Shown in pieces: positions 12,043 to 60,795 of a stretch of DNA of 64,000 nucleotides; the first letter of the stretch is position 1; each line of letters opens with the position of its first letter. The notes under the pieces are model-generated. The model had not been told where the DNA came from. It saw nothing but the letters and a program-made list of their open reading frames with translations, and made no database searches. The translations under genes were made by a program, and so were the position numbers. The stretch spans positions 2,480,001 through 2,544,000 of the forward strand of contig NW_027590117.1 of assembly GCF_964213995.1 (NCBI RefSeq), given 5' to 3'. The stretch is from Mustelus asterias. Lineage: Eukaryota.

Positions 12043-12429
12043 TTACTTGGAGCTGGTGTACTTGGTCACCGCCTTTGTCCCTTCCGACACGGCGTGCTTG
12101 GCCAGTTCCCCGGGCAGCAGCAGGCGCACGGCGGTCTGGATCTCCCGGGAGCTGATGGTGCTGCGCTTGTTGTAATGGGCCAGGCGGGAAGCCTCACGCG
12201 CGATGCGCTCGAAAATATCGTTCACGAACGAGTTCATGATGCTCATGGCCTTGGAGGAGATGCCGGTGTCGGGGTGAACCTGCTTCATCACTTTGTAGAT
12301 GTAGATGGAGTAACTCTCCTTCCTCGACCTTCGCCGCTTCTTCCCGCCCTTTGTTCCCGGTTTCTTAATCACCTTCTTCGCCCCCTTCTTGGGAGCTGGT
12401 TTCGATGTTGGTTTCTTCTCATCAGCCAT
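12043..12429 (-). CDS. H2B: Histone H2B (replication-dependent), 128 aa, carries G75R
   Basis: [58 protein letters not shown]; intronless; stem-loop downstream. Confidence 0.97.
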
Positions 12430-12474
12430 CTTGAATTTCACGCAGAAATAAAGCAAACCCCTTCCGAGCGCTGA

Positions 12475-12630
12475 TTAAATAGACAGTCCCACAGAACTAT
12501 GCTAATGAGGAATTGGAAAAGCAATGATTGTGATTGGACATTTTGAAAGTTATTACAGTCACTTATCAGGGATTCAATTGAGTGGATATGAAAACAGACC
12601 AATCAGATTGAGGAGTTTCCGCCAATCACA
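12475..12630 (-). promoter_or_regulatory. H2B copy 1 promoter: TATTTAA, ATTAGCAT octamer variant (12499-12506), CCAAT boxes
   Basis: Motifs seen directly; near-identical inverted copy upstream of H2B at 47330-47482. Confidence 0.7.
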
Positions 12631-12804
12631 AGCCCCCTTACCACAATCAGGAAATACATTTCACAAAGAATCTCCAGCGCCAGTTTCTCAGTGTGTAAAG
12701 ATCCACCGGGAAATGTCGCCTGGCTGTCGGTGTGAGGGACCCTTCTCCACAGAGGGACTGTGCGGGAGTGTGGGATTCCTTCCGGAACTGTGAATCTCTG
12801 GTAA

Positions 12805-12920
12805 TGTGTGTGAGTGTGGGATTTACTCACTCTCTCTGATACAGTGTGTGAGTGTGGGATTTACTCACTCTCTGACACAGTGTGAGAGTGTGGGAGTTAC
12901 TCTCTGATACAGTGTGTGTC
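12805..12920. repeat. Short tandem repeat (~32-36 bp, gtgtgagtgtgggatttactcactctctgatacag)
   Basis: About 3 units visible; expanded inverted counterpart at 46880-47170. Confidence 0.7.
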
Positions 12921-19699: not shown

Positions 19700-21855
19700 A
19701 GTACAGTAAACATCTTTATCCCGTATTCAAAACATCTTGTAATAAAGGCTTACATTCCATTTTCCTTCTTAATTGCTTGTTCTAGCTGCAGATTAGTTTT
19801 CTGTGACTCATGAACAGGAACAGTCAAGTGCTTTTGAATTTCAACACTTTCAAGCCCCTCATCATTTAAGGAATACTCTGCACATTGCATTCCATCTGCA
19901 AAATTGTTGCCCACTCTCTTAGCCACTTCAAATCCCCTTGAGGAGTTTTTGCCTCCTCTTCACAACTCACATTTCCAGCTTATTTTGTGCATTCTCCAAA
20001 GATTGATATAGATTGTGAATGTTGGGGCCCAAGCACTGATCTTTGTTGTACCCTACTTGTCATTGTCTGCTAACTTGATATGACCTATTTATATCCATTC
20101 TCTGTTTTCTGTCCTTTAACCAGTTCTCAATCTAGGCCAGTATTCACCATGTGTTCTGATTGTGTTTATTAACCTCTTGTGTGGAAACTTATCAAAGGAT
20201 TTCTGAAAATGTAAATATACCACAACAGCTGGTTACTCCTGATCTATTCAGTTAGTTGCATCCTCAGATCTCCAACAGGTTTGCTGAACCTGATTTCACT
20301 TTCATCAGACCATCAGGAACTGTTAAAAATAGAAACATAGAAGATACAAGCAAGAGTAGGTCATTTGGCTCTTGGAGCCTGCTCCAACATTCGTTTTGAT
20401 TGTGGCTGATTATCAAGATCAATATCCTGTTCCCGCCTTCCCCCCATATCCCTTGATCCCTTGAGTCCAAAGAGCTATCTCAAATTTACTCCACAGATTG
20501 ACCAAGATCTGGGTGAAGAAATTTCTCCTCACCTCAGGTCATGTTTCCTGGATTTGTTGTCACCTAACATAGAAGCAAAGAAACTAGAGGTAGGAAACAG
20601 AATACTGTATTTGCAATCAGCAAATTGACAAGAACAGCATAAAACACTGCTACTCATAAAATACAGCAGCTACAGAGTACAACCCACATCTTCCTCACAC
20701 TGACAGGAAAAATAATACTCACATTGCAACAATTAACAGATTCTGCGTAAAGACACGCAGACCTACCACACACTGACAGCAGGACATACTTGAAGTCCTT
20801 CCAGGCCAGAAACAGAGAGGGACAGAATAAAGCCCGTTGTAATAAAGCAGAAAATGACTGGCACAGACTGAAATCCATATTTATGTTTCAGGAACTTATA
20901 AACAATCCACACCTCGCTAGCAGAGTGTACTAGATGTTGAATAAAGAACATGCATAAGTTAATAGTCACGGTAGGCAGGATGGTGTCTCATCTCTATTTA
21001 GTGCATTAGTGACTAAGTGACGTTTCATAGAATCCATACAGTACAGAAGGAGGCCATTCGGCCCATCGAGCCTGCACTGACCACAGTCCCACCCAGGCCC
21101 TTTCCCCGGAACCCTATGTATTTATCCTTCAATCCCATGACGCTAAGGGGCAAATGTTGATTCGTTGGTTAGTGTTGACTTTAATTTGTTACAGTACAAG
21201 TTGTGAACCTTTGTCATGTGACCCTTTCAGATGGTCACTGGGCAATATCAATCTCAATGGGAACTGTAACATCACACATAACTGAGACCTTGAGAATTAG
21301 TGGTAGAGACACACTCCAAATAATAGAACAGCATGTTTGGGAAAATACCAACACACTTATACCAAAGACTGTTATGCATAGATTAAAAACTTACTCACAT
21401 GGCAGAAATTAAAGTGTGCAGTGAAATAACACAAACAAATCCAAAACTGAGAAGCGCAGCTCGAAAAAAATCGCAAGATTTTCCATTTCAGAAACCAACA
21501 GGTGCCAAATGAAATACAGAATAACATCCCAGAACCAACAGACTGTAAAGCCCACACTCTCTTAAATACTGAATGTTATAGAGAAAATAAAACACACGGA
21601 CATATATCAGAGATTGCATTTTCTGAATTAAATCTTAACATCACCGACCGTAGACTAACAGAGATAGAAGCAACATAGAAATATCAGATACGAGTCGACA
21701 CAGCATGAAACCCACTCGCACATGGCTGACAGAGAAGCAGTTTGAAATAGAATGTGTGTATCCTGTTGTGGAATCGCTCTCGCATTGTTCCATAACTGGT
21801 ACCGAATAGATTCTGTTTGATCCCTCAATGTCATCCCCCCAGCACTCTAATAGTT

Positions 21856-22187
21856 TTTTAAATACTTTTCCAATTCAATCAAATCAAATCCAATTCAGAG
21901 TCTCAACAAGTTGAGACATTTCAGATCCAGGCTGACAAGACAGGGCGAGCGACCAAACCACCCTGTCCTGGGCCTGATCTACATGAGCCAAGCTGATTGG
22001 AGGAGGGGGAGGTTCCTCCTCCAAGACTTGAGCTCATTTGCATCTTAGCCAAAAGGCCGAGATGCCGCTTTTAAAAATTGCTTCATATGAAACATATGAA
22101 GCTTCAGTGTAACCTGATGACCTCGACCAAGTGCGGCCGAACATGGGCTGCCGACCATACTACACTTGATCTTAGCCAAAAGGCCGA
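21856..22187 (-). mobile_element. U2 snRNA-headed structured retroposed element (SINEU-like or derivative of a U2-targeting retroelement)
   Basis: U2 nt 9-39 at 22157-22187, U2 nt 7-27 at 22042-22062, several strong hairpins, short A tail, AATAGTT repeated at 21849-21855 and 22187-22193. Confidence 0.72.
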
Positions 22188-22659
22188 ATAGTTGTTTTGA
22201 ACAGTAAATCACCCTCCGGGATTGTTTGACTAATCGTCCCTGAACACCTTGCAGCCAGTAATGTCCAACTCTCATTCCAGTCCTTCTTTCAGTCACTTTT
22301 CTGTTTTAGCCACAATGCTAGTGTCACATATGGGACTTGTGGCTGCTGCTTATCAAACATATTCCCTTTTAACACGCACAGCAGAGCTCGCATTAACCCC
22401 TGCCTGAGCCCAGATATTCTGCACTGCCAGCTCCCGGTGATGGGCAGAAGTAAAGCAGAGCAGTTGGTGCTGGTGAGGAAGGGGAAATGTATGAACAGTA
22501 TCAGCAGTCTGATAGAGTGATGTGGGATTAGCAGCAGAGAGAATGCGCTGGTGCGGGAGAGGGAGTGAGAGGGTCAGGGGGTTGGGTGGATCGGGGCGGA
22601 CAAGGGGAAAGGACGGATTGACAACAGACAGTTTGTGGATTTGAGCAGCAACCAATGTG

Positions 22660-22836: not shown

Positions 22837-23214
22837 ATGGTGGATGAGAAGAAAGCGCCGGTTTCCAAGAAGGGCGCTAAAAAAACGCAGAAAAAGCTGC
22901 CAGCAAAGGGAGGCAAGAAGAGGAAAAGATCCAGGAAGGAGAGTTACTCCATCTACGTCTACAAAGTGATGAAGCAGGTTCACCCCGACACCGGCATCTC
23001 CTCCAAGGCCATGAGCATCATGAACTCGTTCGTGAACGATATTTTCGAGCGCATCGCGGGTGAGGCTTCCCGCCTGGCCCATTACAACAAGCGCAGCACC
23101 ATCAGCTCCCGGGAGATCCAGACCGCCGTGCGCCTGCTGCTGCCCGGGGAACTGGCCAAGCACGCCGTGTCGGAAGGGACAAAGGCGGTGACCAAGTACA
23201 CCAGCTCCAAGTAA
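22837..23214 (+). CDS. H2B: Histone H2B (replication-dependent), 125 aa, distinct N-tail
   Basis: [52 protein letters not shown]. Confidence 0.97.
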
Positions 23215-23250
23215 AACTCCACAATGGACTGAAAAGCAGCCAAACACAAC

Positions 23251-23266
23251 GGCTCTTTTAAGAGCC
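23251..23266 (+). promoter_or_regulatory. Histone 3' stem-loop of H2B copy 2
   Basis: GGCTCTTTTAAGAGCC-ACCCA, HDE GAAAAGGCTG at ~23282. Confidence 0.93.
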
Positions 23267-23544
23267 ACCCACAATCCCTGGGAAAAGGCTGTATCATCCA
23301 TTTAGTTTCAATTATTATATTACGACGCAGCGTCTCGAACAATGATAATTGTTGTTTTTCTGGTTATCAATGAAAGACACGGAGGAATGTAAGTCAATCG
23401 CCCCGTGGATCATTGGCTCTGAGTAATATTTAAAATTAATTAACTGGTTCCTCACCCTCTCTGGGTTTAGATCTCAGACGCGTTGATATTCGGTCCCTTT
23501 TCCAGGCTTTCGAAAGAGAGCGAGGTAATGGAGCAAATGTGTCA

Positions 23545-24488: not shown

Positions 24489-24938
<450 letters not shown>

Positions 24939-24956
24939 AGCGACCGTTCTTTAATC

Positions 24957-25010
24957 ATAGAAATCATAGAAACCCTATCGAGTCTGCACCGACCACAATC
25001 CCACCCCACA
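24957..25010 (-). mobile_element. 54-bp HE1 SINE 3' fragment inserted in the H2A 3' UTR (TSD TAATC)
   Basis: atagaaatcatagaaaccct-atcgagtctgcaccgaccacaatcccaccc matches 1159-1236 with deletions; absent in the H2A copy 2 UTR (49186-49215). Confidence 0.85.
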
Positions 25011-25027
25011 TAATCTGATAACCCAAA

Positions 25028-25043
25028 GGCTCTTTTCAGAGCC
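25028..25043 (+). promoter_or_regulatory. Histone 3' stem-loop of H2A copy 1
   Basis: AAA-GGCTCTTTTCAGAGCC-ACTCA, purine-rich GAAAAAGGGCG downstream. Confidence 0.93.
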
Positions 25044-25312
25044 ACTCACTTTATCTGAAAAAGGGCGATCTGTTTAACCGTCAGAGACACTGTACTGCTA
25101 TTCACAGTAGAGCTGTTTCTCGCTTTGCTTTATCAATCCGTAATTCGCCCTGTGCACATTATTGACCCAGGTGTTTTAATGCATGTAAATTTATGCTATT
25201 TATTGGAGAACATTTTACATATGTTGGAAATATCATTTCCAGCACCATGTCTGAGGTAATTATTTAAATGCAGGTACACAATTGCCCCAGAGTGAGAAAC
25301 AGCATCAAAGAT

Positions 25313-25380
25313 TGATGGCTGAAAAGCACCTCAAACTCAACGGCTCTTTTAAGAACCAACCACAATCTCTGAAAAATCTG
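25313..25380 (+). pseudogene. Orphan H2B 3' UTR with mutated stem-loop (CDS absent)
   Basis: atggctgaaaagcacctcaaactcaacGGCTCTTTTAAGAACCaaccacaatctctgaaaaatctg aligns to the H2B copy 1 3' UTR. Confidence 0.8.
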
Positions 25381-26802
25381 CGCCATCTTTTCCCTTATTG
25401 AGTTAATGAGAAATCTCTTTCTGGAGGATAGAGATTTGTCCCGTTCCGGAATGCTGTGAATGGGACTTCATATCCGCCCCTCACACAAACACTCAGATTG
25501 AAGGAACAATCAAACTGAACTGAGAGCAGATTTTAAAACCCAGCCTGGGATTTGTGACGGACAATGAGGCCCAGCACAATATCAGGACGTAATTATTTAC
25601 ATTTAATGATAACTATGTTCAGTTTCAGAATAAGATTTTTTTTTCACTCGAGTTATCTGGGCACCGCTCCCGGAACAGAATAAAGGCGGGAATTAAGAGG
25701 TTATTCTCGGGCTGATCTGTTTATTCCGCAGTTTTCCCAGAGGACGGAATCAGCGAGATCTGCGCACAAGCTGCGCCTGAGTCCATTGCAGCGCTTTAAG
25801 ATCTGCCTCCCCCCTGCCCTCGCTACTCTCCGGACACAAAGCTGCCTGTTCCACCGGCGGGATTGAGTCAGGAATTCTCTCCACACCTTCCATTGTAACA
25901 TTCCCGACAGCTTTCAGGGGAGAGGGTCAGAAATCAGCCGTTTCTCTCTGTCCCTGTGAAGCCTGTGTGAAGGAGTTGGTTGGTAATCTCTATGTTTCTG
26001 CTTTTCCACTGAGCTGAGATTTGCTCCGTTTCAAATTGCTGAACGGGGACTGATTACCGCGGGCTATAGATAAGAGATTGAGAAATTCAAACTGTTCCTA
26101 AAATAGCGCCAGGATTCTGTGAGGGAAAATACAATAAACAGATTATAAAGTATGAGATTTAAATAGTTTCCTGAACATTAAGGTGTTCCGTTATTTTATA
26201 TTTTTCCTGCACTGAAATTGGCGGGTTTTTCCCAATTTGAAAATGTGAACCAATCAAAACCTCCCATTTCTTCTCCCTTGCTCTCCGATTGGTGAAGAAT
26301 TGGATTGAAATGTGAGTGACCAATCAGAGCTAGAGTCTGGCTGCAGCCTCACAAACCGCTCACAATGATTATTAATAGAGATTAAACTGACGGAATCTGT
26401 ATTTGAGATATTAAATGTACTTTGTTTCCACAGATAAATATTTGAAGAAACCACATATTTCCTCCACACGAGTTACAGGGAAGAATGTCGCCAGCTCCTT
26501 CTCACACATACTCCGAGCTCAGAGAAATAATCACATTTTAATTTGATGTTTTTAAGTTTCCTTTGTACTTTGATTTCTGTTCGGGCTGTTCCCCCTCCTT
26601 TTTGGGGAGCTGCCCCTTTTACTTTGTCCTGATTTAATCTGAGTTTGTTTACTTGGTTTGGTTTGACCTAAAAAGAGGACACAGACAGCTCATCAATTCC
26701 ACAGTCTCCGAGAACAGAAATTATTGCAGAGGGACATTTTCAATCCAGCAATCAAACAGCAGGAATGGCAGATGCTGTGTCCCTATCACGTCTCGTTTTC
26801 GT

Positions 26803-26884
26803 ACCAGGATGGCCGAGTGGTTAAGGCATTGGACTTAAGATCCAATGGACATATGTCCGCGTGGGTTCGAACCCACTCCTGGTA
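26803..26884 (+). tRNA. tRNA-Leu (TAA), near-canonical
   Basis: ACCAGGATGGCCGAGTGGTTAAGGCATTGGACTTAAGATCCAATGGACATATGTCCGCGTGGGTTCGAACCCACTCCTGGTA; one substitution and one missing C in the T-arm relative to the canonical vertebrate gene; TTTTT at 26891-26895. Confidence 0.85.
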
Positions 26885-28454
26885 GAAGGATTTTTAACAC
26901 TACATTCTGCACCTTCTCCTCTGTATACACTGCGAAATGCGCACGCAACCAGAGTTTTCACAACAGAGTAATTATTTCTTGTCACAATAAGAAATCAAAT
27001 CAAACTCAATACCGCCGACAGGGTGATCCATAAATCCCAGTCCAAACCATTATCAGATCATCACTGTGTCAATCCCACAATAGAGCAGCCTTAGCTCCAA
27101 ATTAAGTATCTGATAAAACCGTAAAATGGTTTTTTGGTTAAATGTTACACAATTAACCTTAATAATGTACTTTGAGATTCCAGTTAAATACCAGTCATAT
27201 CACCCACATCAGGGGTTTGGAACTGGCAGTACTAATCGCCATGGTGAGTTCTCACAAATACATTAGATACAAATCTGAAGGACAATCTCAGATTGAGATA
27301 TTCTGAAAGCGAGTATAACCTGAGATACAAACTCAGGTTCCAGTTGAAAACTCACCTAAATTATGAACCTAAAAGTTACAATATCAATTTGATGACTATG
27401 AACTGAACCATAAATTATAAACTAATCCTCACTCACACTGAGCCAGATGGAAGACATTGTGCCAATTCCAGACTGAGCTCCATTTTACACCCATGTCAAA
27501 ATTCTTACTCCGAATCAGACTGTCACAGATCATATCAATGTGAACAACCTGAGTGAAACTTGCATAGCAATCCAGTATCAGATTGAAGGATACATTACCT
27601 TTCACAGTTGTGTTCACAGTGACAGAGATTTGTTACTGGGCCAAAACTCACTCACATTATTTTCTTCAAACCTACTACATCAGTGGCCTATTTCTATGTT
27701 GGAAAGTTATTTGGAATTAATCCAAATAGATAACTTGTCCCAGAGATTGAAGGTTATTTAATTAATCCCATACTCACACTAAATACCAAAGACTGATAAA
27801 TAAGAGAATAGTTCTGATCACATGTTCAGCATCAACAGCTGAAAAGTACAGGCTGTTTACTGCACTCACTCACAGGAGCTGAGTCTGAGTGATATGAAAT
27901 AAATCACACACACACCAATTGTATCACTGAGGGATTTGGAAACAACCAAAGGCTCACACAGAGTAACGGAAACAAATGGAAGATTAGACAGAGAGAGACG
28001 TGAGTGACAAATCCCAAATGAGACACACAATTTTAAACAGCACCATAGATTTACATACATGATTAATTCCACTGACAGGAACAGCATGAAGCTGATGTTC
28101 TGCAAACAGTACCAGAGGAATTAAAGCATATATTCCACAAACAGCAGCAGGGGATTTAAAATTACTGATGTTTGCCACACTTATATGAAATGCTCACAGA
28201 TATAGAGGCCATTGACAGGTCTCGAATGATCCAACACTCACACACTTTATAAGAGTCTGCCAGATATATATAACTGGCTCCTTCAGAAATAACACCAGAC
28301 AAATTCAGATTCAGAATGGAACCAGATACTGAAACATGTGAATTGATTCCAACACTGATTGTGTGTCTTGGGCAGCCCATACCTACGGGGATATGGTGGA
28401 TCATGACGGCAAATCCTACCATATACATCACCAGGCAGGTCGCTACTGCACAAA

Positions 28455-28650
28455 TAAAAGCAAATTACTGTGGATGCTGGAATTTGAAATCAAAAGAGAA
28501 AATTCTGGAAAATCTCAGCAGGTCTGGCAGCATCTGTAAGATGACAAAGGTCTTCGACAAAGGGTCGTCTGGACTTGAAACGTCAGCTCTTTTCTCTCCT
28601 TACAGATGCTGCCAGACCTGCTGAGATTCTCCAGCATTTTCTCTTTTGCT
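28455..28650. mobile_element. Second Penelope-type palindromic repeat family with variant hammerhead-like core
   Basis: aaatctcagcaggtctggcagcatctgtaag ... cttacagatgctgccagacctgctgaga inverted arms; related copies at 13830-13920 and 49735-49835; absent from the left arm. Confidence 0.65.
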
Positions 28651-29648
28651 ACTGCACAATGTGATTCTGCAATGGGGCAACACTTACTAAATAATCCTGA
28701 TTGTGCTCAGAATTACACTGAAAATGTGACCAGAAGGGCAGAGTTTTTTTTTGAAAAATGTGACCTACCCTTTAAGGCAGAGGTGAGGAGGAACCTTTTT
28801 GATCAGTTGTTTTTTTTTTCTTTATCCATTCATGGGATGAGGGCATCACTGGCTCAGCCAGGATTTATTGCCCACACTTAATTGCCCTGGGGTAGGCAGT
28901 GCTGAACTGCAATCTTCAACTGCTGCTGCCAATGTCATGTAGGTACACCCACAGTGTGTTTTTTCTTTGGCAGGGGGGGGGGGGGGGGGGATGCTGGGGA
29001 GTGGGAAGTTCCTGGATTCTGACCTACTGACACTGAAGGAACGGCGATATATTTCCAAGCCCTGATGATGAGTGGCTTGGAGGGAGATTTCCAGGTGATG
29101 TTGTTCTGATGCATCTGCTTTTCCTTTTCCTTCTAGGCGATAGTCATGGTGGGTTTGGAAGGTTCTGTCAAATACACCTTTGTGAATTCTGGCAATGCAT
29201 CTTGTAGATGGTGTGCACTGCTGACCCTGTCTGTCAATGGTAACATAAGCCTTATTGTGACTAATAAATACACTTTAACTTTAACTTTTGGTGGAGGGAG
29301 TGACTCTTTGTGGTTGGGAAACGAATTAAGTCAGATATTTTGTACTGGATAGTGTCAAACTTCTAGTGTTGTTGGAGATGCATTCACCCAGGCAAGTTAC
29401 ATGTGGAAACCGGGTACTCCGGCTTCCTTCCACAGTCCAAAGATGTGCAAGTTGGGTGGATTGGTCATTCTAGATTGCCCTTTGTGTGGTAAAAAGTGAA
29501 GGTTAGGTAGATTAGCGGGGTGGGTGCGTGGGGCTCTGGCGATAGGACATGGATGGGATGCTCTGTTGGAGAGTCAGTGCAGTTTCAATGGGCCAAATGG
29601 TCTCCTTCAGCACTGCAGGGATTCTGTGATTTAAAGGTCATTTGACTG

Positions 29649-29701
29649 TCCATCGACCTCTGGGTTATGGGCCCAGCACACTTCCGCTGCGCCACTCTGC
29701 T
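29649..29701 (-). pseudogene. 3'-truncated tRNA-iMet pseudogene
   Basis: AGCAGAGTGGCGCAGCGGAAGTGTGCTGGGCCCATAACCCAGAGGTCGATGGA then unrelated sequence; most of the T-arm and the 3' acceptor strand are deleted. Confidence 0.88.
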
Positions 29702-32700
29702 ATAAGCTAACAGTTTCCTGCTTATTATTGCTGAGCTGTAGCAGGACAAAATGTCACTGTTGCATTGCTGTTTAATGTCAGAAAATGTGCTCGGCAGCTC
29801 CGCCTGGCGGCACAATTCCATGCTTAACACACCAAGAATGGAACACACATAAAAGCAGCAAGAGACTGACAGGAGGCACACGCAGAGGAGAATGGACCGA
29901 CTGATCATTTGTGTAAAGTGTTCATGAAAAGATCAGCCATGATCTTATTGAATGGCGGTGCAGGCTCGAGGTGACAAAAGGCCGACTGATGCTCCATGCT
30001 TTTATAATCTCATATTCTTCTTTGGATCCAATACTATTAATTTATTTTGTTATCCATGATTGGGCCACTTTCCAGTTATGTTTACGTGCCAGAAAGGAAT
30101 GTATAACTCTTCCATTACATACAACTATGCCTTAAATATTAGCCATTGCCTATCGACCGTTATGCCATTTTATGAATCTATTAATCCGTAATCTATTTTA
30201 GCAAACTCACCTCTCATAACTTCCTAGTTTACGTTATTTAGGTTTAGGATTCTCGTTCAGGATTGGATCTGAGTCATGCTTCTGGACTGATGGGAGATGT
30301 TCCACAAAGCAGTCACTCAATCTACCAATGCAGAGCACATCATTAGCAGTGAAATTTTAGAAAAAATATAATGTTGCAAAAGCTCATTCTCCTGCATGTA
30401 GACACTGAACTGTGAGGAAAGGTAATGTGGCCTTCCATTCAGGAACTTCTGGTATTTCTTCCCTTTCCTCAACCAATCTTCTCACCACTCTGTGGCAGGC
30501 AGGGTTCTCAAGTGTGTCGCTCCCATGTCCCACACTTGGAACATTTCCAATCAGTTCACAATGATGATTGAATTTCTGAGAAGAGTTTCTAGTCACCTGC
30601 CATTTTCATTCTGCATCTCACTCTCACACGGATTATTCTGTCCTGGGTCTTTCCTGGTGTTCAGAGCACCTCTCCTCCATTCAGATTTTTCTTACTTTAT
30701 GTATCTGGTGATTATCCCTTTCACTGTGTAACTAATTCTTATTATTTAATGCATGCGTGCATGTCACAGATATTCCATTTCGTTCTTTTTCACATGAGCC
30801 CCTCTCCTCTCCATTTGCCTGTAATGTATTACATTTCTAACTTCAAACAGTTCTGATGGGCAGATGTTGATCTGAAATATTTGCTATTAACTGTTTGTCT
30901 CTGCAGCAGCTCACTTGTTATGTAATTACAGATCTTCGAAATTAAATTCATATTTCCTGCATTCATACCATTTGAAGTCAGTACTAAGGTTGAGAGGAGT
31001 TTTCAGAGAGGTGATTGAAATCATGATCGGTTTCAATAGAGTAAATGGAAATAAAATGTTTCTGTGAAACAATGGCACGGGTTCGTTGTGAATGATATAA
31101 AAGAACAAAGAAAACCGTCAGGGAATACATTTGTCATTACATTGGGCAGCAAGTTGCTGTGATCTTGAATATGATGCCTGTAATCGAAGCCAATTAGAAT
31201 GAAAAGTAAATTGTATTCATTCATGTGATGTGTTCATCACTGGCTTGGCCAGCATTTATTGCACTAATTTCCCTTGAACTGAGTGGCTTGTTAGGCCATG
31301 TCAGAGGGCATTAAAGAGTCAAAAACATACTGTGGGTCTGGAGTCACAGGGAGGCCAGAAAAGGTAATGTGGGTGGGTTCCTTTCCTATAGGGGTATCAG
31401 TGAACCAAATGGGTTTTTACAACACGGCCATCATTAGACCTTTAATTCCAGATTTTAATTGAGCTCAAATTGCACACTGTGCTGAGGTGATAATCAGGTC
31501 CCATTGAATTGCACTGGACCTCTGGGTCACTAGTCCAGTGACAATACCACTACGCCATTACCTCCTCACGTGGGAACTGTGGCCGCCACGAGCAGATATC
31601 AGCAAGTAGTTTATTGTAGGCTGATTGTCTGTGAGCTGAAACATGAACTCTGTTTCTCTCTTCACAGATGCTGCCTGACCTGTTGTGTATTCCAGAATTT
31701 TCACCTTGTTTCAGATGTCCAGCGTCCACATGATTTTACCTGTGAATTATTGCAGCTGTTGCTCAGAAAACTGAGGCCTGAAATAGACAAATTAAGAGCG
31801 ATTTTGAATCAAGCTGGATGTTGGTTTTGGAATTCGGCCCCTCAGTTTCTGTGAAGGTATGTTTTTGTTTGGGTGACTTTAGTGTGTAGAAGCAGGAGAA
31901 AGTGATGGGTTTAATTCTGAGTAAATTTGAGAGCAGTAGGGTCAAAACACTTCTGATCAAAGATCATTAACTGTGTCTTGTACAGTTAAAGAAACATTGC
32001 ACACTCACATACAATAAGTGTTGGACAGAGAATCAATTCCACATTGATATGCAGTATCAGACTGAGTTAATTCCACACTGAAAACTGTAACAGAGACTGA
32101 GAAAAGGAGTTAGTCCCACACACACACTACCAGAACATAAGAAAAAGGAGCAGGAGAAGACCATTCAGCCCATCAGGCCTGTTCTGCCATTCAGTAAGAT
32201 CATGGCTGATCTGATTGTGGCCTCCACTCCACTTCAGTACCTGTCCCCATAACCCTTGATTCTCTTGTAGCTCAAAAATCTGTCTAACTCAAGATTGAAT
32301 CTATTCAATGACAAAAATTAAGGTTCCCTTAAAATAAGTAATTCCTCCTAATCTCCATCTTAAATTGGAGATGCTTTATCTTTAAACTGTGCCTCTCGTT
32401 CCAGTTTCCCCCTACACATTGCAACATCCCACTCAGCATCTACACTGTCAAGCCCTTGAGAATCTTATATGTTTTAGTACGATCCTCGCTCATTCTTCTC
32501 CACTGAAAATTGGCCAGACTTGTTTAATTTTTCCTCATAAGAGAACTCCTTCATCTCAGGAATCAGCCTCCACTCGCTGCAGTTTTCTAAGCTGACAGTG
32601 ACCCACTTCCATACACGAACAGACACTGACACAGACATTATTATCAATTGATTGAGTCAATTCCACATCTACACACAGTAATAGAGATTGACAGAGTGTT

Positions 32701-33496
32701 AATGCCACACTGCAGTAAAGGATAAAGAATAGAGAAGCGTTAATTCCAGCTTCATGTCCAAATCAGAGATGAACAGTGTTAATGCCCCATTCACATACAG
32801 TAATAAAGAATAACAGATACAGAATTAATTCTATATTCACATACGCTAACAAAGATGGACAGAAAGGTAATGGCTAAATTCAGCACAGTCCCAGATGACC
32901 ATCGGCTGCTCTCTCCTTTCATGAATATCCTCAGCTGGTACAGGAATATGAACCCACGCTGTTGGGGTTACTCTGCATCACAGTCCCGCTGTCCAGCCAA
33001 CTGAGCAAATCAACCCCCAGGGTAGGACAGAGAACAAAGAAAATTACAGCATAGGAGCAGGCCCTTCGGCCCTCCAAGCCTGCACCAACCATGCTGCCTG
33101 ATTTAACTAAAACCCCCTACGCTTCTGGGGACCATATCCCTCTATTCCCATCTCATTCATGTACTTGTCAAGATGCCCCAAGAGAGGTAATTGCAAACTG
33201 AAACACAGGAACTGAGACTGGCGAATCAATTTAATTCCACACTCACTTGCACGAATACAGGCTGACACATCAGAGAATTAATCCATCCTCAAATAAACTG
33301 ACAGGAAGAAATTCACTGTAGTTCCACCCTGGGATACAGTAACAGAGACTGACAGAGTGAATCGTGCTCTCATGTACAGATTGACAGATAGCAGGAATGA
33401 GTTAACTCCACATTCTCATACAGTAACAGAGATGGACAGATCGAGTGTGAATTCCACACTCTAATGGTTCTCACTTGAAGAATTCTTCTGATATGC

Positions 33497-36624: not shown

Positions 36625-39345
36625 ATGATTTGATTTATTATTTTCACGTGTATGAGTATATAGTGAAAATTACTGTTTCTTGCGCGCTATATAGACTAAG
36701 CATAACTTTCATAGAGAAGGAAAGGAGAGAGTGCAGAATGTAGTCATAGCTAGGGTGTAGAGAAAGATCAACTTAATGCAAGGTAGGTCCATTCAAAAGT
36801 CTGGCAGCAGCAGGGAAGAAACTGTTTTTGAGTCGGTTGGTACGTGACCTCAGACTTTTCTATCTTTTTCCCAACGGAAGAAGGTGGAAGCGATAATGTC
36901 TGGGGTGAGTGGGGTCCTGAATTCTGCTGGCTGGCAGCAGGAAGTGTATACAGAGTCAATGGATGGGAGGCTGGTTTGCGTGATGGATTGGGCTACATTC
37001 ACAACATTTTGTAGTTTCTTGCAGTCTTGGGCAGAGCAGGAGCCAAACCAGGTTGTGATACAGCCAGAAATAATGCTTTCAATGGTGCATCTCTAACAGT
37101 TGGTGAGAGTCGTAGCTGATGTGCTAAATTTCTTTAGTCTTCTGAGAAAGTAGAGGCGTTGCTGGGGCTTTCTTAACTATAGTGTCGGCATGAGGGGGAC
37201 CAGGACAGGTTGTTGGTGATCTGGACACCTAAAAACATGAAGCTCTTGACCATTTCTACTTCGTCCCCGTTAATGTAGACAGGGGCATGTTCTCTCTTAT
37301 GTTTCCTGAAGTAGATGACAATCTACTTCATTTTGTTGACATTGGGGGACAGATTATTGTCACCGCACCAGTTCACCAGATTCTCTATCTCGTTCCTGAA
37401 CTCTCTCATCATTGTTTGCGATCCGGCCCACTGCGGTGGGGTCGTCAGCAAACTTGAAAATCGAATTGGAGGGGAATTTGGCCACACAGTCACAGGTGTA
37501 TCAGGAGTATAGTAGGGGGCTGAGAACACAGCCTTGTGGGGCACCAGTGTTGGGGATGATCGTGAAGGAGGTGTTGTTCTTATCCTTTCTGATTGTGGTC
37601 TGTGGGTTAGGAAGTTCAGTATCCAGGCGCAGAGAGAGGAGCCGAGGTCCAGGCCACGGAGTTTGGAGATGAGTTTTGCAGGAATATTGGTGTTGAAGGC
37701 TGAGCTGTAGTCAATAAATAGAAGTCTGCTGTAAGTGTCTTTGTTATCGAGGTGTTCCAGGGCTGAGTGCAGGGGCAGGGAGATGCCGTCTGCTGTGTAC
37801 TGTTGCGCTGGTAGGCGAACTGTTGTGCATCCAGATAGTCTGGGAGGCTGGAATTGATTTGTGCCATGTCTAATCTTTCGATGCGCTTCCTAATGATGGA
37901 TGTCTGAGCCACTGGATAATGGTCATTGAGGCACGCTGCTTAGCTTTTCTTTGGCACTGGGATGATAGTCATCATCTTGAAGCAGGTAGGGACCTGAGAT
38001 TGTTGTAAAAAGAGGTTGAAGATGTCTGCGAATGCGCCCGCCAGCTGATCCATGCAGGATCTGAGTGCTTGTCCGGGTACCCCATCCGAGGCAGTCACTT
38101 TCCTTGGGTTGACCTCTGAGAAAGCTGCTCTGACATTTGCAATGGTGACCTCAGATACATAAGAACATAAGAAATAGGAGCAGGAGTAGGCCATCTAGCC
38201 CCTCGAGCCTGCCCCGCCATTCAATAAGATCATGGCTGATCTGACGTGGATCAGTACCACTTACCCGCCTGATCCCCATAACCCTTAATTCCCTTACCGA
38301 TCAGGAATCCATCCATCCGCGCTTTAAACATATTCAGCGAGGTAGCCTCCACCACCTCAGTGGGCAGAGAATTCCAGAGATTCACCACCCTCTGGGAGAA
38401 GAAGTTCCTCCTCAACTCTGTCTTAAACCGACCCCCCTTTATTTTGAGGCTGTGTCCTCTAGTTTTAACTTCCTTACTAAGTGGAAAGAATCTCTCCGCC
38501 TCCACCCTATCCAGCCCCCGCATTATCTTATAAGTCTCCATAAGATCCCCCCTCATCCTTCTAAACTCCAACGAGTACAAACCCAATCTCCTCAGCCTCT
38601 CCTCATAATCCAAACCCCTCATCTCCGGTATCAACCTGGTGAACCTTCTCTGCACTCCCTCCAATGCCAATATATCCTTCCTCATATAAGGGGACCAATA
38701 CTGCACACAGTATTCCAGCTGCGGCCTCACCAATGCCCTGTACAGGTGCATCAAGACATCCCTGCTTTTATATTCTATCCCCCTCGCGATATAGGCCAAC
38801 ATCCCATTTGCCTTCTTGATCACCTGTTGTACCTGCAGACTGGGCTTTTGCGTCTCATGCACAAGGACCCCCAGGTCCCTTTGCACGGTAGCATGTTTTA
38901 ATTTGTTTCCATTGAGATAGTAATCCCATTTGTTATTATTTCCTCCAAAGTGTATAACCTCGCATTTCTCAACGTTATACTCCATTTGCCATATCCTCGC
39001 CCACTCACTCAGCCTGTCCAAATCTCTCTGCAGATCTTCTCCGTCCTCCACACGATTCACTTTTCCACTTATCTTTGTGTCGTCTGCAAACTTCGTTACC
39101 CTACACTCCGTCCCCTCCTCCAGATCATCTATATAAATGGTAAACAGTTGCGGCCCGAGTACCGATCCCTGCGGCACGCCACTAGTTACCTTCCTCCAAC
39201 CGGAGGGTAACGAGTGGCGTGCCACTAGATACAGATTCATCTCAGGCTTCCAGGGTGGAGCGCGTGCTCTCACTGACCTCTTGCTCAGAGCAGGCACAGA
39301 ATGCATTGAGCTCATCAGGGAGGTGTGCGTTGGAGCCGGTGATTT
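36625..39345 (-). mobile_element. Rex1/Babar-type LINE (decayed), interrupted by CR1 at 38160-39226
   Basis: ORFs 37940 (DQLAGAFADIFNL..TIIPVPKK), 37616 (LDAQQFAY), 37323 (NLVNWCGDNNLS); resumes at 39227; antisense homolog of 40470-43668. Confidence 0.82.
38160..39202 (-). mobile_element. Young 5'-truncated CR1 LINE, TSD AGATACA
   Basis: Open RT frame (ORF 38251..39315); nearly identical to 60811-61860; agataca at 38153-38159 and 39227-39233. Confidence 0.93.
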
Positions 39346-43400: not shown

Positions 43401-43668
43401 TCTTCCAACAGGAAAAAGATACAAACGTCTGAGATCATGTATCAACCAACTCAAGAACCGCATCTTCCCTGCTGCCATCAGACTTTTGAATGGACCTGCC
43501 TTATATTGATCTTTCGCTACAGACTAGTTATGAATGTAACACATTCTGCACTCTGTCATTTCTTTCTCCCCGTGTACTCTATGAATGGTATGCTTTGCTT
43601 GTATAGCGCACAAGAAAAAATACTTTTCACAGTATGCCAATACATGTGACAACAGTAAATCAAATTGA
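40470..43668 (+). mobile_element. Near full-length decayed Rex1/Babar-type LINE (endonuclease + RT)
   Basis: ORF 40648..41397 (KRGKRAG..LPSLLLANVQSLENNLDEL..CVLCFTET..AGDFN), later DQLAGVFADIFNLSL, KFADDTT, FYRCTIE; tail gtgacaacagtaaatcaaat; stops and frameshifts. Confidence 0.87.
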
Positions 43669-46879: not shown

Positions 46880-47170
46880 CAGACACCATCAGAGAGTGAG
46901 TAAATCTCACACTCACACTCAGTGTGTCAGAGAGTGACTAAATCCCACACATACACACTGTATCAGAGTGAGTAAATCCCCCACACACACTGTATCAGAG
47001 AGTACGTAAATCCCACACACACACACATACTATCAAAGAGTGAGTAAATCCCCCCCCCCCCCCCCCCCGCCACACACACACACACACACACCCACTGTAT
47101 CAGAGAGTGAGTAAATCCCACACTCTCACACTGTGTCAGAGAGTGAGTAAATCCCACACTCACACACATT
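46880..47170. repeat. ~32-40-bp tandem repeat with poly-C/(CA)n expansion
   Basis: Repeated cacactgtatcagagagtgagtaaatccca; inverted counterpart at 12805-12920. Confidence 0.8.
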
Positions 47171-47526
47171 CCCAGAGATTCACAGTTCCGGAAGGAACCC
47201 ACACTCCCCCACAGTTCCTCTGTGGAGACGGGTCCCTCACACCGACAGCCAGGCGACATTTCCCGGTGCATCTGAAAAACTGGTCCTGGAGAGATTCTTT
47301 GTCAAAGGTATTTCCTGATTGTAGCTTGTGATTGGCGGAAAGGCTTCAATCTGATTGGTCTACTTACATCTTCACTCAAATGAACCCCTGATAAGTGATG
47401 TGGCAACTTTCAAAATGTCCAATCACAATCATTGCTTTCCCAATTCCTCATTAGCATAGTTCTGTGGGACTGTCTATTTAATCAGCGCTCGGAAGGGGTT
47501 TACTTTATTTCTGTGCGAAATTGAAG

Positions 47527-47913
47527 ATGGCTGATGAGAAGAAACCAACATCGAAACCAGCTCCCAAGAAGGGAGCGAAGAAAGTGATTAAGAAACCGGG
47601 AACAAAGGGCGGCAAGAAGCGGCGAAAGTCGAGGAAGGAGAGTTACTCCATCTACATCTACAAAGTGATGAAGCAGGTTCACCCCGACACCGGCATCTCC
47701 TCCAAGGCCATGAGCATCATGAACTCGTTCGTGAACGATATTTTCGAGCGCATCGCGGGTGAGGCTTCCCGCCTGGCCCATTACAACAAGCGCAGCACCA
47801 TCAGCTCCCGGGAGATCCAGACCGCCGTGCGCCTGCTGCTGCCCGGGGAACTGGCCAAGCACGCCGTGTCGGAAGGGACAAAGGCGGTGACCAAGTACAC
47901 CAGCTCCAAGTAA
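47527..47913 (+). CDS. H2B: Histone H2B (replication-dependent), 128 aa
   Basis: [31 protein letters not shown]; ATTAGCAT 47450-47457; stem-loop GGCTCTTTTAAGAGCC 47950-47965; promoter and gene are an inverted duplicate of 11970-12900. Confidence 0.97.
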
Positions 47914-48735
47914 AACTCGCCATGGACTGAAAAACATCCCAAACACAACGGCTCTTTTAAGAGCCACCCACAATCTCTGTGAAAAAGCTGTACCTGGCTC
48001 CTTCCTATTCGATGGTTAGAATGTAAAATAGAAAAACTTCCACTGCTGTTTGTGTCTCCTGTCCTGTAATCCAAACACTGACCCAGAATTCACTCATTGC
48101 CTTCGCTTTGTGCTGAAAGCTGTTATTATTCTGTTATTTTCACAGCTCCTAAATGACCTCATTAGCGGCTGTTTTTCGCGGTTAACGGTCCCTTCTCTCA
48201 ATTCCTGAAATGTTCATTGATTCATCATTTTATTCACAGTAATTCTCCGCAATGTAACAGTCCGGAGTGGGATTATTACAGAGCGGAATAAGGACAGTGT
48301 GAGGACTCGATCCGACTCCCTGTTTTCAGTGAAGGACACTGGGTTCTGATTGAAGACTAAACGGAGTGTTTTCCTTCTGGGAATGCTGTGAACAGGGATT
48401 GATTCCCGCCCGGGACAGTTAGAAAGCGATAGGAGAATGAAGCACATTGAAAGAAAATGTTAAAGTCGCGCCTGCGATTGGTGACGGGAAGAGCTGAATA
48501 AAAGCAAATCAATAGAAGGGATTTGAAATCTCTGACTAAGGACGACATTGATTTGAATTCGCTCCTTTCCCACAATGAAATTGGCGGGCTTTTGGAAATG
48601 GACAAATTCTCTGCTTCTGCCGGTTGTTGTGGGGAAATCCCGCCCTCTTCTGTTTCCAGTGAGCTGATTGGTGAAGAATATAGGCAAATGAGGTGAATAG
48701 AGCAGCGGCCAATCAGAGGAGCTGTCAGTTTATAA

Positions 48736-49185
<450 letters not shown>

Positions 49186-50424
49186 AGCGACCATTCTTTA
49201 ATCTGATAACCCAAAGGCTCTTTTCAGAGCCACTCACTTTATCTGAAAAAGGGCGACCTGGTGTCTATCGGTCAGATTCTGCACTGTTATTCACAGTACA
49301 GCTGTTTCCCACGTTGTCTTATCGATCCGAAGTGTTCTCTGTGCACGGAATTATTGACACAAACAGTATTTTGATGTTTGCAACTTGCTGCTATTTATTG
49401 GGGAAACTATCCCAGTGAACTGAAATGATCCTATTTCCAATATCATTTCTTTGAAATGTGAGTCTGTGATGCAACTGATAATTGCATTGTCTTTAATCAT
49501 GAATTTTCAGAGCCACTCACTTTATCTGAAAACAGGTTGAATTATTATCTGTCCTCATGTGCAAGTGTCTCTGCAATGACTATATCTGTGCGAGTGGGTT
49601 TCTGAGAGACACGTTTCATACTCTGAACCTCATTGACATCAATTCCGAGCTCAGCTGTGAATACCACTATTCATAGAGAAAGTATATTAGGGGAAGAAAG
49701 TCTAGTAATCTGATATGATCGCAGATCCAATCAAACCAAAAGAGACAATGCTTGAACATCTCAGCCGGTCTGGCAGCATCTGTAAGGCGAGAAAGGAGCT
49801 GACGTTTCGAGTCCAGATGACCCTTCGTCAAAGCAGATCCAATAAATTTGTTCTCAAATTGTCTGCGCTACAAATGTTAACCATGATGTGGAGTTGCCGG
49901 CGTTGGACTGGGATAGGCACAGTAAATAGTCTCACAACACCAGGTTAAAGTCCAACAGGTTTATTTGGTCGCAAATGCCATGGTTGCTGTGGCAGGGTTG
50001 TGTGGTGTCGTGGTCACTGTTCTGAAGGCTGGAGGCTGGGTAGTTAGCTGCGGACAATGGTCTGTTTGAGGTTGTGCGGTTGTTTGAAGGCAAGAAGTGG
50101 GGGTGTGGGGATGGCCTTGGCGAGATGTTCGTCTTCATCAATGACATGTTGAAGGCTGCGGAGGAGATGCCGTAGCTTCTCCGCTCCGGGGAAGTACTGA
50201 ACGATGAAGGGTACTCTGTCCACCGTGTCCCGTGTTTGTCTTCTGAGGAGGTCAGTGCGGTTTTTCGCTGTGACGCGTCGGAACCGTCGATCAATGAGTC
50301 GAGCGCCATATCCTGTTCTTATGAGGGCATCTTTCAGCGTCTGGAGGTGTCTGTTGCGATCCTCCTCATCCGAGCAGATCCTGTGTATATGGAGGGCTTG
50401 TCCGTAGGGGATGGCTTCTTTAAC

Positions 50425-53375: not shown

Positions 53376-53447
53376 GCGATGGTGGTATAGTGGTGAGCAT
53401 AGCTGCCTTCCACGCAGTTGACCCGGGTTCGATTCCCGGCCATCGCA
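53376..53447 (+). tRNA. tRNA-Gly (TCC)
   Basis: GCGATGGTGGTATAGTGGTGAGCATAGCTGCCTTCCACGCAGTTGACCCGGGTTCGATTCCCGGCCATCGCA, 72 nt, stems intact. Confidence 0.92.
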
Positions 53448-53768: not shown

Positions 53769-53851
53769 GTTGTAATGGCCGAGTGGTTAAGGCGTTAGAC
53801 TTCAAATTCAACGAGGGATTTTCCGCGCAGGTTCGAACCCCGCTCGCAGCG
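53769..53851 (+). tRNA. tRNA-Ser(TGA)-type gene with mutant anticodon TCA, probably a pseudogene
   Basis: TGGCCGAGTGGTTAAGGCG D-arm, loop CT-TCA-AA (anticodon 53802-53804), long variable arm, GCAGGTTCGAAC; mismatches in acceptor, anticodon and T stems. Confidence 0.75.
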
Positions 53852-59616: not shown

Positions 59617-60309
59617 ACCCCTTTCAAAACTCTGGAATTTACATCAGTTTATGGAGATTTATTAAATTTCAACCCCATTAATTTCTCCAGTTTTTTTTCA
59701 CTAATACTAACCTCTTTCAGTTCCTCATGCTCACTACTCCCTTGGTTCTCTCGTGTTTTTAGGGTGATTTCTGAATCTTCCTCCATGAAGACAGACACAC
59801 ATTTAGTTGATCTGCCATTTATCTGTTCCACATTATAAACTCTCCTGTCTCTGCCTGGAATTGATCACATTTGCCCTTGCTAATCTTTTCCTTTTCTAAC
59901 TTCTATGGTTTTTATGTTTCTCACCAATCTGCTCTCATATTCTATTTTCTCTTTCTTTTTTTAGTTTCTTGGTCCCCCTTTACTGAATTCTAAAACATGT
60001 TCCCAATCCTGAAGCTTTTGACTATTTTGGGCAGGATACGAGTCCCTTCCTTTGATCTGATGGAATCTTCCACTGTCCTTCTTAGCCACAGTTGCTTCGC
60101 TTTTCCTGTTGGATTTTTGTTCCTTAAAGGAATCTATAATTGTTGTATATATGTGAAATTAAAGTCTCCCAAAATTCCCAGAGGACCATAATGTTAAGAC
60201 CCAAGCCAGAAACTCCAAGGTATCTTGTCAAGTTAACCTCGACCCTAAATGTTACATTTGATTTTGGCAGTAGGGTGAGCATTATGTATTTCACTCCAGG
60301 TATGATTTA

Positions 60310-60795
60310 ATTTTGATTTGATTTATTATTGTCACATGTATTAATATACAGTGAAAAGTATTGTTTCTTGCTCGCTATACACACAAAACATACCGTTCAC
60401 AGAGAAAGAAACGAGAGTGTGCAGGATGTAGTGTTAAAGTCATAGCTAGGGTGTAGAGAACGATCAACTTAATGCAAGGTAAGTCCATTCAAAAGTCTGA
60501 CAGCAGCAGGGAAGAAGCTGTTCTTGTGTCGGTTAGTACGTACCCTGAGGCTTTTGTATCTTTTTCCCGAAGGAAGAAGGTGGAAGAGAGAATGTCCGGG
60601 GTGCGTAGGGTCCTTAATTATGCTGGCTGCTTTGCTGAGGCGGGAAGTGTAGACAGAGTCAATGGATGGGAGGCTGATTTGCATGATGGATTGGGCTACA
60701 TTCATGACAAGTTCTCCTTTACGCTTCCTGAAGTTGATGACAATCTCCTTTGTTTTGTTGACATTGAGGGACAGATTATTGTTGCCGCAACTACT
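60310..60795 (-). mobile_element. Rex1/Babar-type LINE 3' fragment (internally deleted)
   Basis: ORF 60469 (NNLSLNVNKTKEIVINFRK..LLPSGKRYKS..NSFFPAAVRLLN); (ttgat)n tail. Confidence 0.85.

Follow-up and report, generated by a model that had tools for sequence, protein, structure and literature searches.

The stretch of DNA analysed here ('the window') is 64 kb of the Mustelus asterias contig NW_027590117.1, and its contents are those of a vertebrate histone/tRNA cluster: five histone stem-loops, four tRNA matches, H2A and H2B open reading frames and many LINE fragments. The histone/tRNA unit carries old segmental duplications (about 73-95%), partly inverted, which pair ~768-12034 with ~25315-33462, 11966-12892 with 47083-47990, and 24516-25210 with 48763-49405. 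Two LINE copies (38157-39204 and 60814-61861) are 99.6% identical over 1048 nt, one of them containing ORF 60908-62971 (-) of 687 aa with an RT domain, and on this identity they appear to represent a recently active family. A tRNA at 53769-53851 is called SeC (tca) by ARAGORN and reaches only 39.4 bits with Rfam, perhaps as a mutated copy; it adjoins a tRNA-Gly-like gene (53376-53447) with an odd anticodon arm. By its kinds of repeat the window has a shark-like appearance. Among these features, on the minus strand at 21849..22193, sits a non-coding element of ~330 nt, overlapped by no open reading frame of at least 100 aa, which is real, unusual and more thoroughly derived from U2 snRNA than was first thought. 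Its parts, from the neighbouring gene and then along the U2-sense strand, are as follows.

22837..23214 (+): histone H2B gene (Pfam Histone), neighbour of the element and divergent from it
22187..22198 (-): 5' copy of the target-site duplication (TSD), exact over 7 bp at 22187-22193, or extending over 11-12 bp when one difference is allowed
22157..22187 (-): head A, U2 nt 9-39 unchanged, with nt 1-8 absent (5'-truncated); 31/31 against the reference U2, and Rfam
22135..22156 (-): start of the insert, a small hairpin stacked on the head duplex in the predicted fold, with U2 nt 35-39 left as a bulge
22111..22134 (-): antisense arm to head A, predicted to pair with it over 20 bp (6 of them G.U) at the expense of stem-loop I (1/500 shuffles)
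22104..22117 (-): tentative stem IIa-like hairpin of an alternative fold (58/1000 shuffles)
22080..22102 (-): perfect 10-bp hairpin of the predicted fold, in a IIb-like position
22070..22079 (-): single-stranded, Sm-site-like AU5A tract (mean pairing 0.1), end of monomer A
22033..22069 (-): head B, remodelled U2 nt 1-36 (32/36 identical; hairpin z -4.1)
21983..22037 (-): long 21-bp hairpin (z -7.0)
21957..21981 (-): second antisense arm, directed at the diverged U2 nt 39-63 region (z -5.6)
21874..21944 (-): diverged U2 nt 39-107, comprising the BSL 3' strand, stem IIa, stem IIb, the IIc strand and a decayed Sm site (46/66; shuffles and tiles)
21900..21917 (-): U2 stem IIb, kept as a 7-bp hairpin in which one C-G pair of the reference U2 is replaced by U-A, a double change (fold and alignment)
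21849..21873 (-): 3' end without clear poly(A), followed by the 3' TSD copy (21849-21859), from alignment of the flanks

The H2B start codon (22837) lies 644 nt from the element, which points away from the gene, in keeping with the original prediction of a landing site ~650 bp upstream; a Histone3 stem-loop at 23246-23291 is found near the same gene. The predicted 7-bp TSD is present and exact, with its 5' copy at 22187-22193 and its 3' copy at 21849-21855, and it shares one base with U2 nt 9. It can be extended to 11-12 bp with one difference, in which case the 3' copy spans 21849-21859 and the reconstructed insertion target reads as an L1-type TTTT/GA nick, a GA variant that is tolerated at the L1 nick. 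The preferred L1 nick is TTTT/AA (PMC2912911). Since the extended TSD absorbs the run of 4-6 A residues that had been taken for a short A tail, that tail is doubtful, and under this reading the locus has a TSD and no A-rich tail, as a tailless retropseudogene does. Together, the TSD and the L1-type nick support the earlier proposal that this is probably a retroposed copy. An empty site was sought upstream of two other H2B genes, and no upstream sequence was held in common; within the 64-kb window there is no second copy of the element. One of the two perfect octamers in the window lies at 22036-22043, ~800 nt upstream of the H2B start codon. Octamers function in both snRNA and H2B promoters; this one arises in 2.7% of shuffles and may be there by chance.

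As a U2 reference we used a vertebrate-type U2 gene (190.7 bits) from a metagenome contig (locus L015), which stands in for the host's own U2. Natural variation was drawn from 128 loci holding 134 motif matches, 125 of them unique and 102 with an intact head; 17 of these were too short at contig ends and were dropped, leaving 85 full-length rows. The same collection held observations of its own. Among its 23 headless matches, several (in L038, L122, L115, L082, L091, L106 and L016) have non-U2 sequence ending in GTA just before U2 nt 39, and these upstream sequences may mark Utopia-like 3' junctions or U2 genes that have been disrupted. In L062 (match at 155-173, -), the branch-recognition region of a U2 gene is interrupted by ~60 nt, possibly an intron, and the reference contig links vertebrate-type U1 and U2 genes ~640 nt apart (824-1014 and 1656-1819, -).

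By alignment, three segments of the element derive from U2. The first, the 'exact U2 nt 9-39' with which the element had been said to begin, is just that: 22187-22157 is identical to the reference at all 31 positions, and to 45 of the 85 natural rows. Rfam U2 (RF00004) scores the element at 30.4 bits (E 5e-4), less than the gathering score of 46. The second segment overturns the view that everything after the head is a 'non-U2 body', as 21944-21874 is a diverged copy of U2 nt 39-107, identical at 46 of 66 aligned positions. An end-to-end, transition-tolerant alignment, a score picked after a covariance-model hit had been seen, gave 26.7 against 4.6 +/- 3.2 for shuffled sequence (0/400), and was matched by 0/5000 further shuffles and 0/630 window tiles. 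With 75 of the 85 natural rows the alignment starts at 21935-21955, the vertebrate one scoring best, and the same score was null for three U1 pieces and for the antisense strand. The covariance model in question, of U2 IIa-IIb-Sm from 33 loci, matched 21939-21879 over its full length, though weakly (E 2.6); plain local alignment of this region was not significant (121/500 shuffles as good) and nhmmer returned no hit for it. It follows from the homology that the hairpin at 21917-21900 is U2 stem IIb, and that the GATTT-like repeats noted at the 3' end, which do exist, cover the decayed IIc/Sm region of U2, the homologous Sm site after IIb having itself decayed. These repeats were also considered as the tail of a partner LINE and rejected, as they lie inside the U2 alignment and are antisense to the (CAAAT)n-like LINE ends in the window; such ends occur on LINE fragments at 60304-60330, 10460-10480, 26992-27010 and 43655-43665. 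U2 nt 108-191, with stem-loops III and IV, is absent from the element (best alignment not significant, 171/400 shuffles).

The third segment had been recognised as a second copy of U2 stem-loop I; a second U2 copy is indeed present, but it is more than stem-loop I, spanning nt 1-36 at 22069-22033 with 32 of 36 positions identical. Here stem-loop I has gained 3 bp, the branch-recognition sequence is broken and two changes have created the octamer at 22036-22043.

Read in order, the element consists of U2(9-39), an insert of 212 nt (22156-21945), U2(39-107) and a short end. Head A terminates at the position at which Keno and Utopia enter U2, and U2 resumes at nt 39 after the 212 nt, which bears out the predicted link to that breakpoint. 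The junction raises the alternative that the element stems from an autonomous LINE, Keno/Tx1 or Utopia, either as its U2-headed 5' end or as an internally deleted (SIDE-like) derivative, copied here in short or 3'-truncated form. Besides the junction at nt 38/39, there is precedent in the tandem insertion of Utopia in U2 genes (PMC4640811), in the U2 head of Tx1-11_Crp (PMC4494074) and, in principle, in the R2 SIDEs (PMC3414825). The 3' part of the element comes from U2, however, and not from a LINE 3' UTR, and neither an HDV-like nor a hammerhead ribozyme was matched: a descriptor search was empty on both strands of the element and the Rfam HDV family gave E 7.2. Furthermore, three motifs of the body are absent from the text of 10 Utopia supplement files (whose figures may be images), and the non-U2 body compared with the 128 U2-motif loci yielded nothing beyond two chance hits. 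We regard such a LINE origin as decidedly unlikely.

The element is equivalently readable as a dimer, each half being a remodelled 5' part of U2. In this arrangement monomer A can be read as head A and its antisense arm, followed by two hairpins, one IIa-like and one IIb-like, and by a tract resembling an Sm site; monomer B is then U2(1-36) and U2(39-107) with 90 nt inserted between them. The IIa/IIb/Sm resemblance of monomer A to U2 is weak, an alignment with U2 47-107 as good being reached by 58/1000 shuffles, and the order of a IIa-like followed by an Sm-like feature occurs in 0.66% of 20000 shuffles when looked for post hoc. An A follows the U run in 10 of the 85 natural U2 rows, and the AU5A motif alone turns up in 21% of shuffles. 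The inserts of the two monomers show no likeness to one another (319/500 and 244/500 shuffles).

All structure described here is prediction from one sequence. Within that scope the structural part of the original prediction held up well, each of its five hairpins being found where it had been placed. The fold reaches -149 kcal/mol (z -9.2, 0/100 shuffles), or -146.1 kcal/mol (z -7.1) on 328 nt with 60 shuffles; 89 GC-matched window tiles average -81 and go no lower than -138.7 kcal/mol. Just one of 160 window tiles folds lower than the element, and it is a DNA foldback. It is one of two MITE-like foldbacks with long inverted repeats in the window (2058-2248, 90 nt, 84%, the tile just mentioned; and 28491-28648, 58 nt, 91%). 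On the U2-sense strand of the element the fold is more stable than on the complement by 29.8 kcal/mol, a difference that averages 15.8 +/- 5.3 in shuffles (2/80 as extreme), and contains 17 G.U pairs versus one 1x1 A.C mismatch, a pattern that selection acting on an RNA of U2-sense polarity would leave.

The suggestion that the body pairs back onto the head proved sound, and the predicted duplex is longer than had been claimed, joining 22185-22162 with 22134-22111 over 20 bp; one as stable is found in 1/500 shuffles. Within it, the pair probability of stem-loop I in head A falls to 0.005 (0.07 with nt 1-8 modelled in). The arm at 21981-21957 is likewise predicted to bury U2 39-63, by pairing with 21950-21922, such that forming stem IIa costs 7.2 kcal/mol. 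The two antisense arms of the insert are thus predicted to sequester both the head and the stem IIa region. Of the six changes from U2 within nt 39-63, five are matched by the arm as G-C pairs, and in these models base changes keep or strengthen pairing on the U2-sense strand. The two duplexes are asymmetric, with head A unchanged at 31/31 positions and 6 G.U among its 20 pairs, versus G-C pairs at five of the six changed positions of the IIa duplex. The simplest account is that something external, either renewal or function, keeps head A fixed, and that the remainder has adapted to it. In human cells, full stabilisation of the BSL likely prevents the U2 snRNP from assembling (PMC12407996), and masking of this kind would therefore plausibly keep the RNA from splicing.

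These features lead us to a tentative reading, to which we give a probability of about 0.45, that the element is a retrocopy, of L1/Tx1 type, of a selfish, SINEU-like RNA whose own locus has a U2 promoter; the antisense arms of this ~330-nt RNA are predicted to mask its splicing-active surfaces. The source copies would be U2 loci with the cassette at nt 38/39. Their transcription would start from the upstream U2 (pol II snRNA) promoter, given that the element lacks an internal promoter and contains oligo-T. The head would stay perfect because intact U2 renews it, whether through gene conversion, a template switch or insertion at the Keno/Utopia site, and the cassette would have evolved its pairing with the head. 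With the head masked, the second stem-loop I locked and stem IIa buried, the RNA would be kept outside the spliceosome and be harmless to carry. A LINE of the L1/Tx1 clade may then have copied it in trans to the present site, with the loss of nt 1-8; the missing nucleotides and the flanking TSD copies make it likely that this copy is not the source gene. No partner LINE tail for the element was identified in the window, whose inspected open reading frames we take, by their motifs, to be of CR1/L2, Rex and Penelope types.

The fold itself offers the main rival reading, in which the host has retained a low-copy U2 paralogue (a variant snRNA, decoy or regulator), the locus is its tailless retropseudogene, and the head is perfect because it functions, opened by a switch. 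A U2-like alternative fold, with stem-loop I, a BSL-like stem, IIa-like and IIb-like hairpins and a free Sm-like tract, lies 3.2 kcal/mol above the MFE and keeps this reading alive, as does the post hoc IIa-like to Sm-like order given above. Nucleotides 35-39 of U2 are unpaired in both folds, and nt 35-37 are the toehold in real U2 (PMC12407996); 22 of 25 ncRNA retrocopies are without poly(A) (PMC2912911), and human spliceosomes take in variant U2s (PMC8457000). Such a paralogue would have to do without U2 108-191 and its stem-loops III and IV, with a decayed homologous Sm site, with a stem IIa that is costly to form and with the branch-recognition sequence of head B broken, and the resemblance of monomer A to the U2 IIa/IIb/Sm region is weak. 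On balance we find it rather unlikely. If the RNA is host-retained, it would be a U2 paralogue with an architecture that was not found in the literature searched.

Evidence from outside the window bears on how far the element extends. Thirty-four words sampled from it were sought in sequencing runs. The words are specific to the element because the U2-identical head yields only one 31-mer and the diverged 3' U2 part has none in common with U2. Part of the element is present in 20 of the 23 runs listed, 17 of which contain 0.23-0.82 of the words with no small-share flag; the three small-share runs and the three with no words were left out of the evidence. When one possible source study (P1) is omitted, 13 runs from 7 studies remain, with 0.23-0.68 of the words; they cover eight coded organisms and a fish metagenome, and in three of the seven studies half or more of the words are present. 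The element is not private to this genome and is present in several species, and as the words record presence only, they fit a single orthologous locus equally well as a multi-copy family. Body motifs had 0 matches in metagenome contigs or viral contigs, collections not expected to hold the host, and a match in genome contigs, to a bacterial MAG (L128), was rejected as chance (33 nt at 88%).

A single orthologous locus is what would be expected if the element were a one-off chimera, a decayed U2 pseudogene joined to fold-back or template-switch pieces, fixed once and orthologous in related species. There is one copy in the window, and a fold-back that arose once the U2 segment had diverged would pair with the derived bases too. 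The three U2 segments differ in divergence, however (100%, 32/36 and 46/66), and the strand-biased G.U pairs and the retained IIb hairpin speak for a long history as a folded RNA before insertion, making such an accident improbable. Returning to the selfish, SINEU-like RNA, a broader version would have it as a lineage-wide, U2-born RNA resident in U2 loci, gaining a fresh perfect 5' end with each entry at the Keno/Utopia site and having evolved arms that switch this end off. We think this broader version unlikely; if true, a spliceosomal snRNA gene would for the first time be seen to have a non-autonomous parasite, or else the RNA would be a domesticated two-state U2 decoy, the latter keeping a branch-site toehold and an Sm-like site. 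If the retrocopy reading is true, snRNA-headed SINEs reach beyond crocodilians, and should the source of a U2-headed retroposon sit under a U2 promoter, the transcription of SINEUs would become testable. The anatomy also suggests a rule, that an RNA borrowing a spliceosomal promoter may need to hide the splicing-active sequence that accompanies it.

Set beside known systems, several assignments fall away: that to a Keno/Utopia LINE, as the element has no ORF; that to an R2-type SIDE, as it shows no ribozyme; and that to intact U2 (30.4 vs 46 bits). Rfam matches to SNORD94, BLV_package, mir-26 and Afu_191 are far under gathering. Retrozymes are hammerhead retroelements, and the element contains no hammerhead ribozyme by Rfam or descriptor search. 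The literature searched, which lay outside Repbase Reports and most subscription journals, contained no paper on a U2-derived SINE or U2-like RNA for cartilaginous fishes. Keno (of the Tx1 clade) and Utopia are U2-specific LINEs that insert at nt 38/39, so that the downstream U2 starts at nt 39 (PMC4640811). The element shares their breakpoint in U2; unlike them, it has no reverse transcriptase or endonuclease ORF and no identified LINE UTR, and its downstream U2 part is 70% identical and lies within the TSD. Like the R2 SIDEs (PMC3414825), it would be a short, non-autonomous passenger of a multicopy RNA gene, with co-transcription probable in the present case; unlike them, it lacks a 5' HDV-like ribozyme and is made mostly of host-gene pieces and not of LINE ends. 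Tailless snRNA retropseudogenes (PMC2912911) resemble it in TSD, L1-type nick and want of a clear A tail, but here the template would be a remodelled, structured derivative and not U2 itself. Variant U2 snRNAs (PMC8457000) have in common with it a perfect U2 5' end and an Sm-like tract, and differ from it in its 212-nt insert, its lack of stem-loops III/IV and its predicted self-masking.

A close parallel is with the SINEUs (SINEU-1, -2 and -3), which are described from crocodilians only; U1/U2 heads were added to them repeatedly, one family is dimeric, they contain oligo-T but lack an internal promoter, and their Tx1 partner is related to Keno; all groups are poly(A)-tailed, and their mode of transcription is stated as open (PMC4494074). 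The present element comes from Mustelus asterias, not a crocodilian, and has no clear poly(A). Its insert at nt 38/39 keeps U2 39-107, whereas SINEU-3 is an internal deletion, and its antisense arms over U2 parts have no counterpart described in the main text of the SINEU report (PMC4494074). It shares with those elements a U2 head, a length of <500 bp, at least two parts that come from snRNA, oligo-T within the sequence, the absence of an internal promoter and, probably, mobilisation of the Tx1/L1 type.
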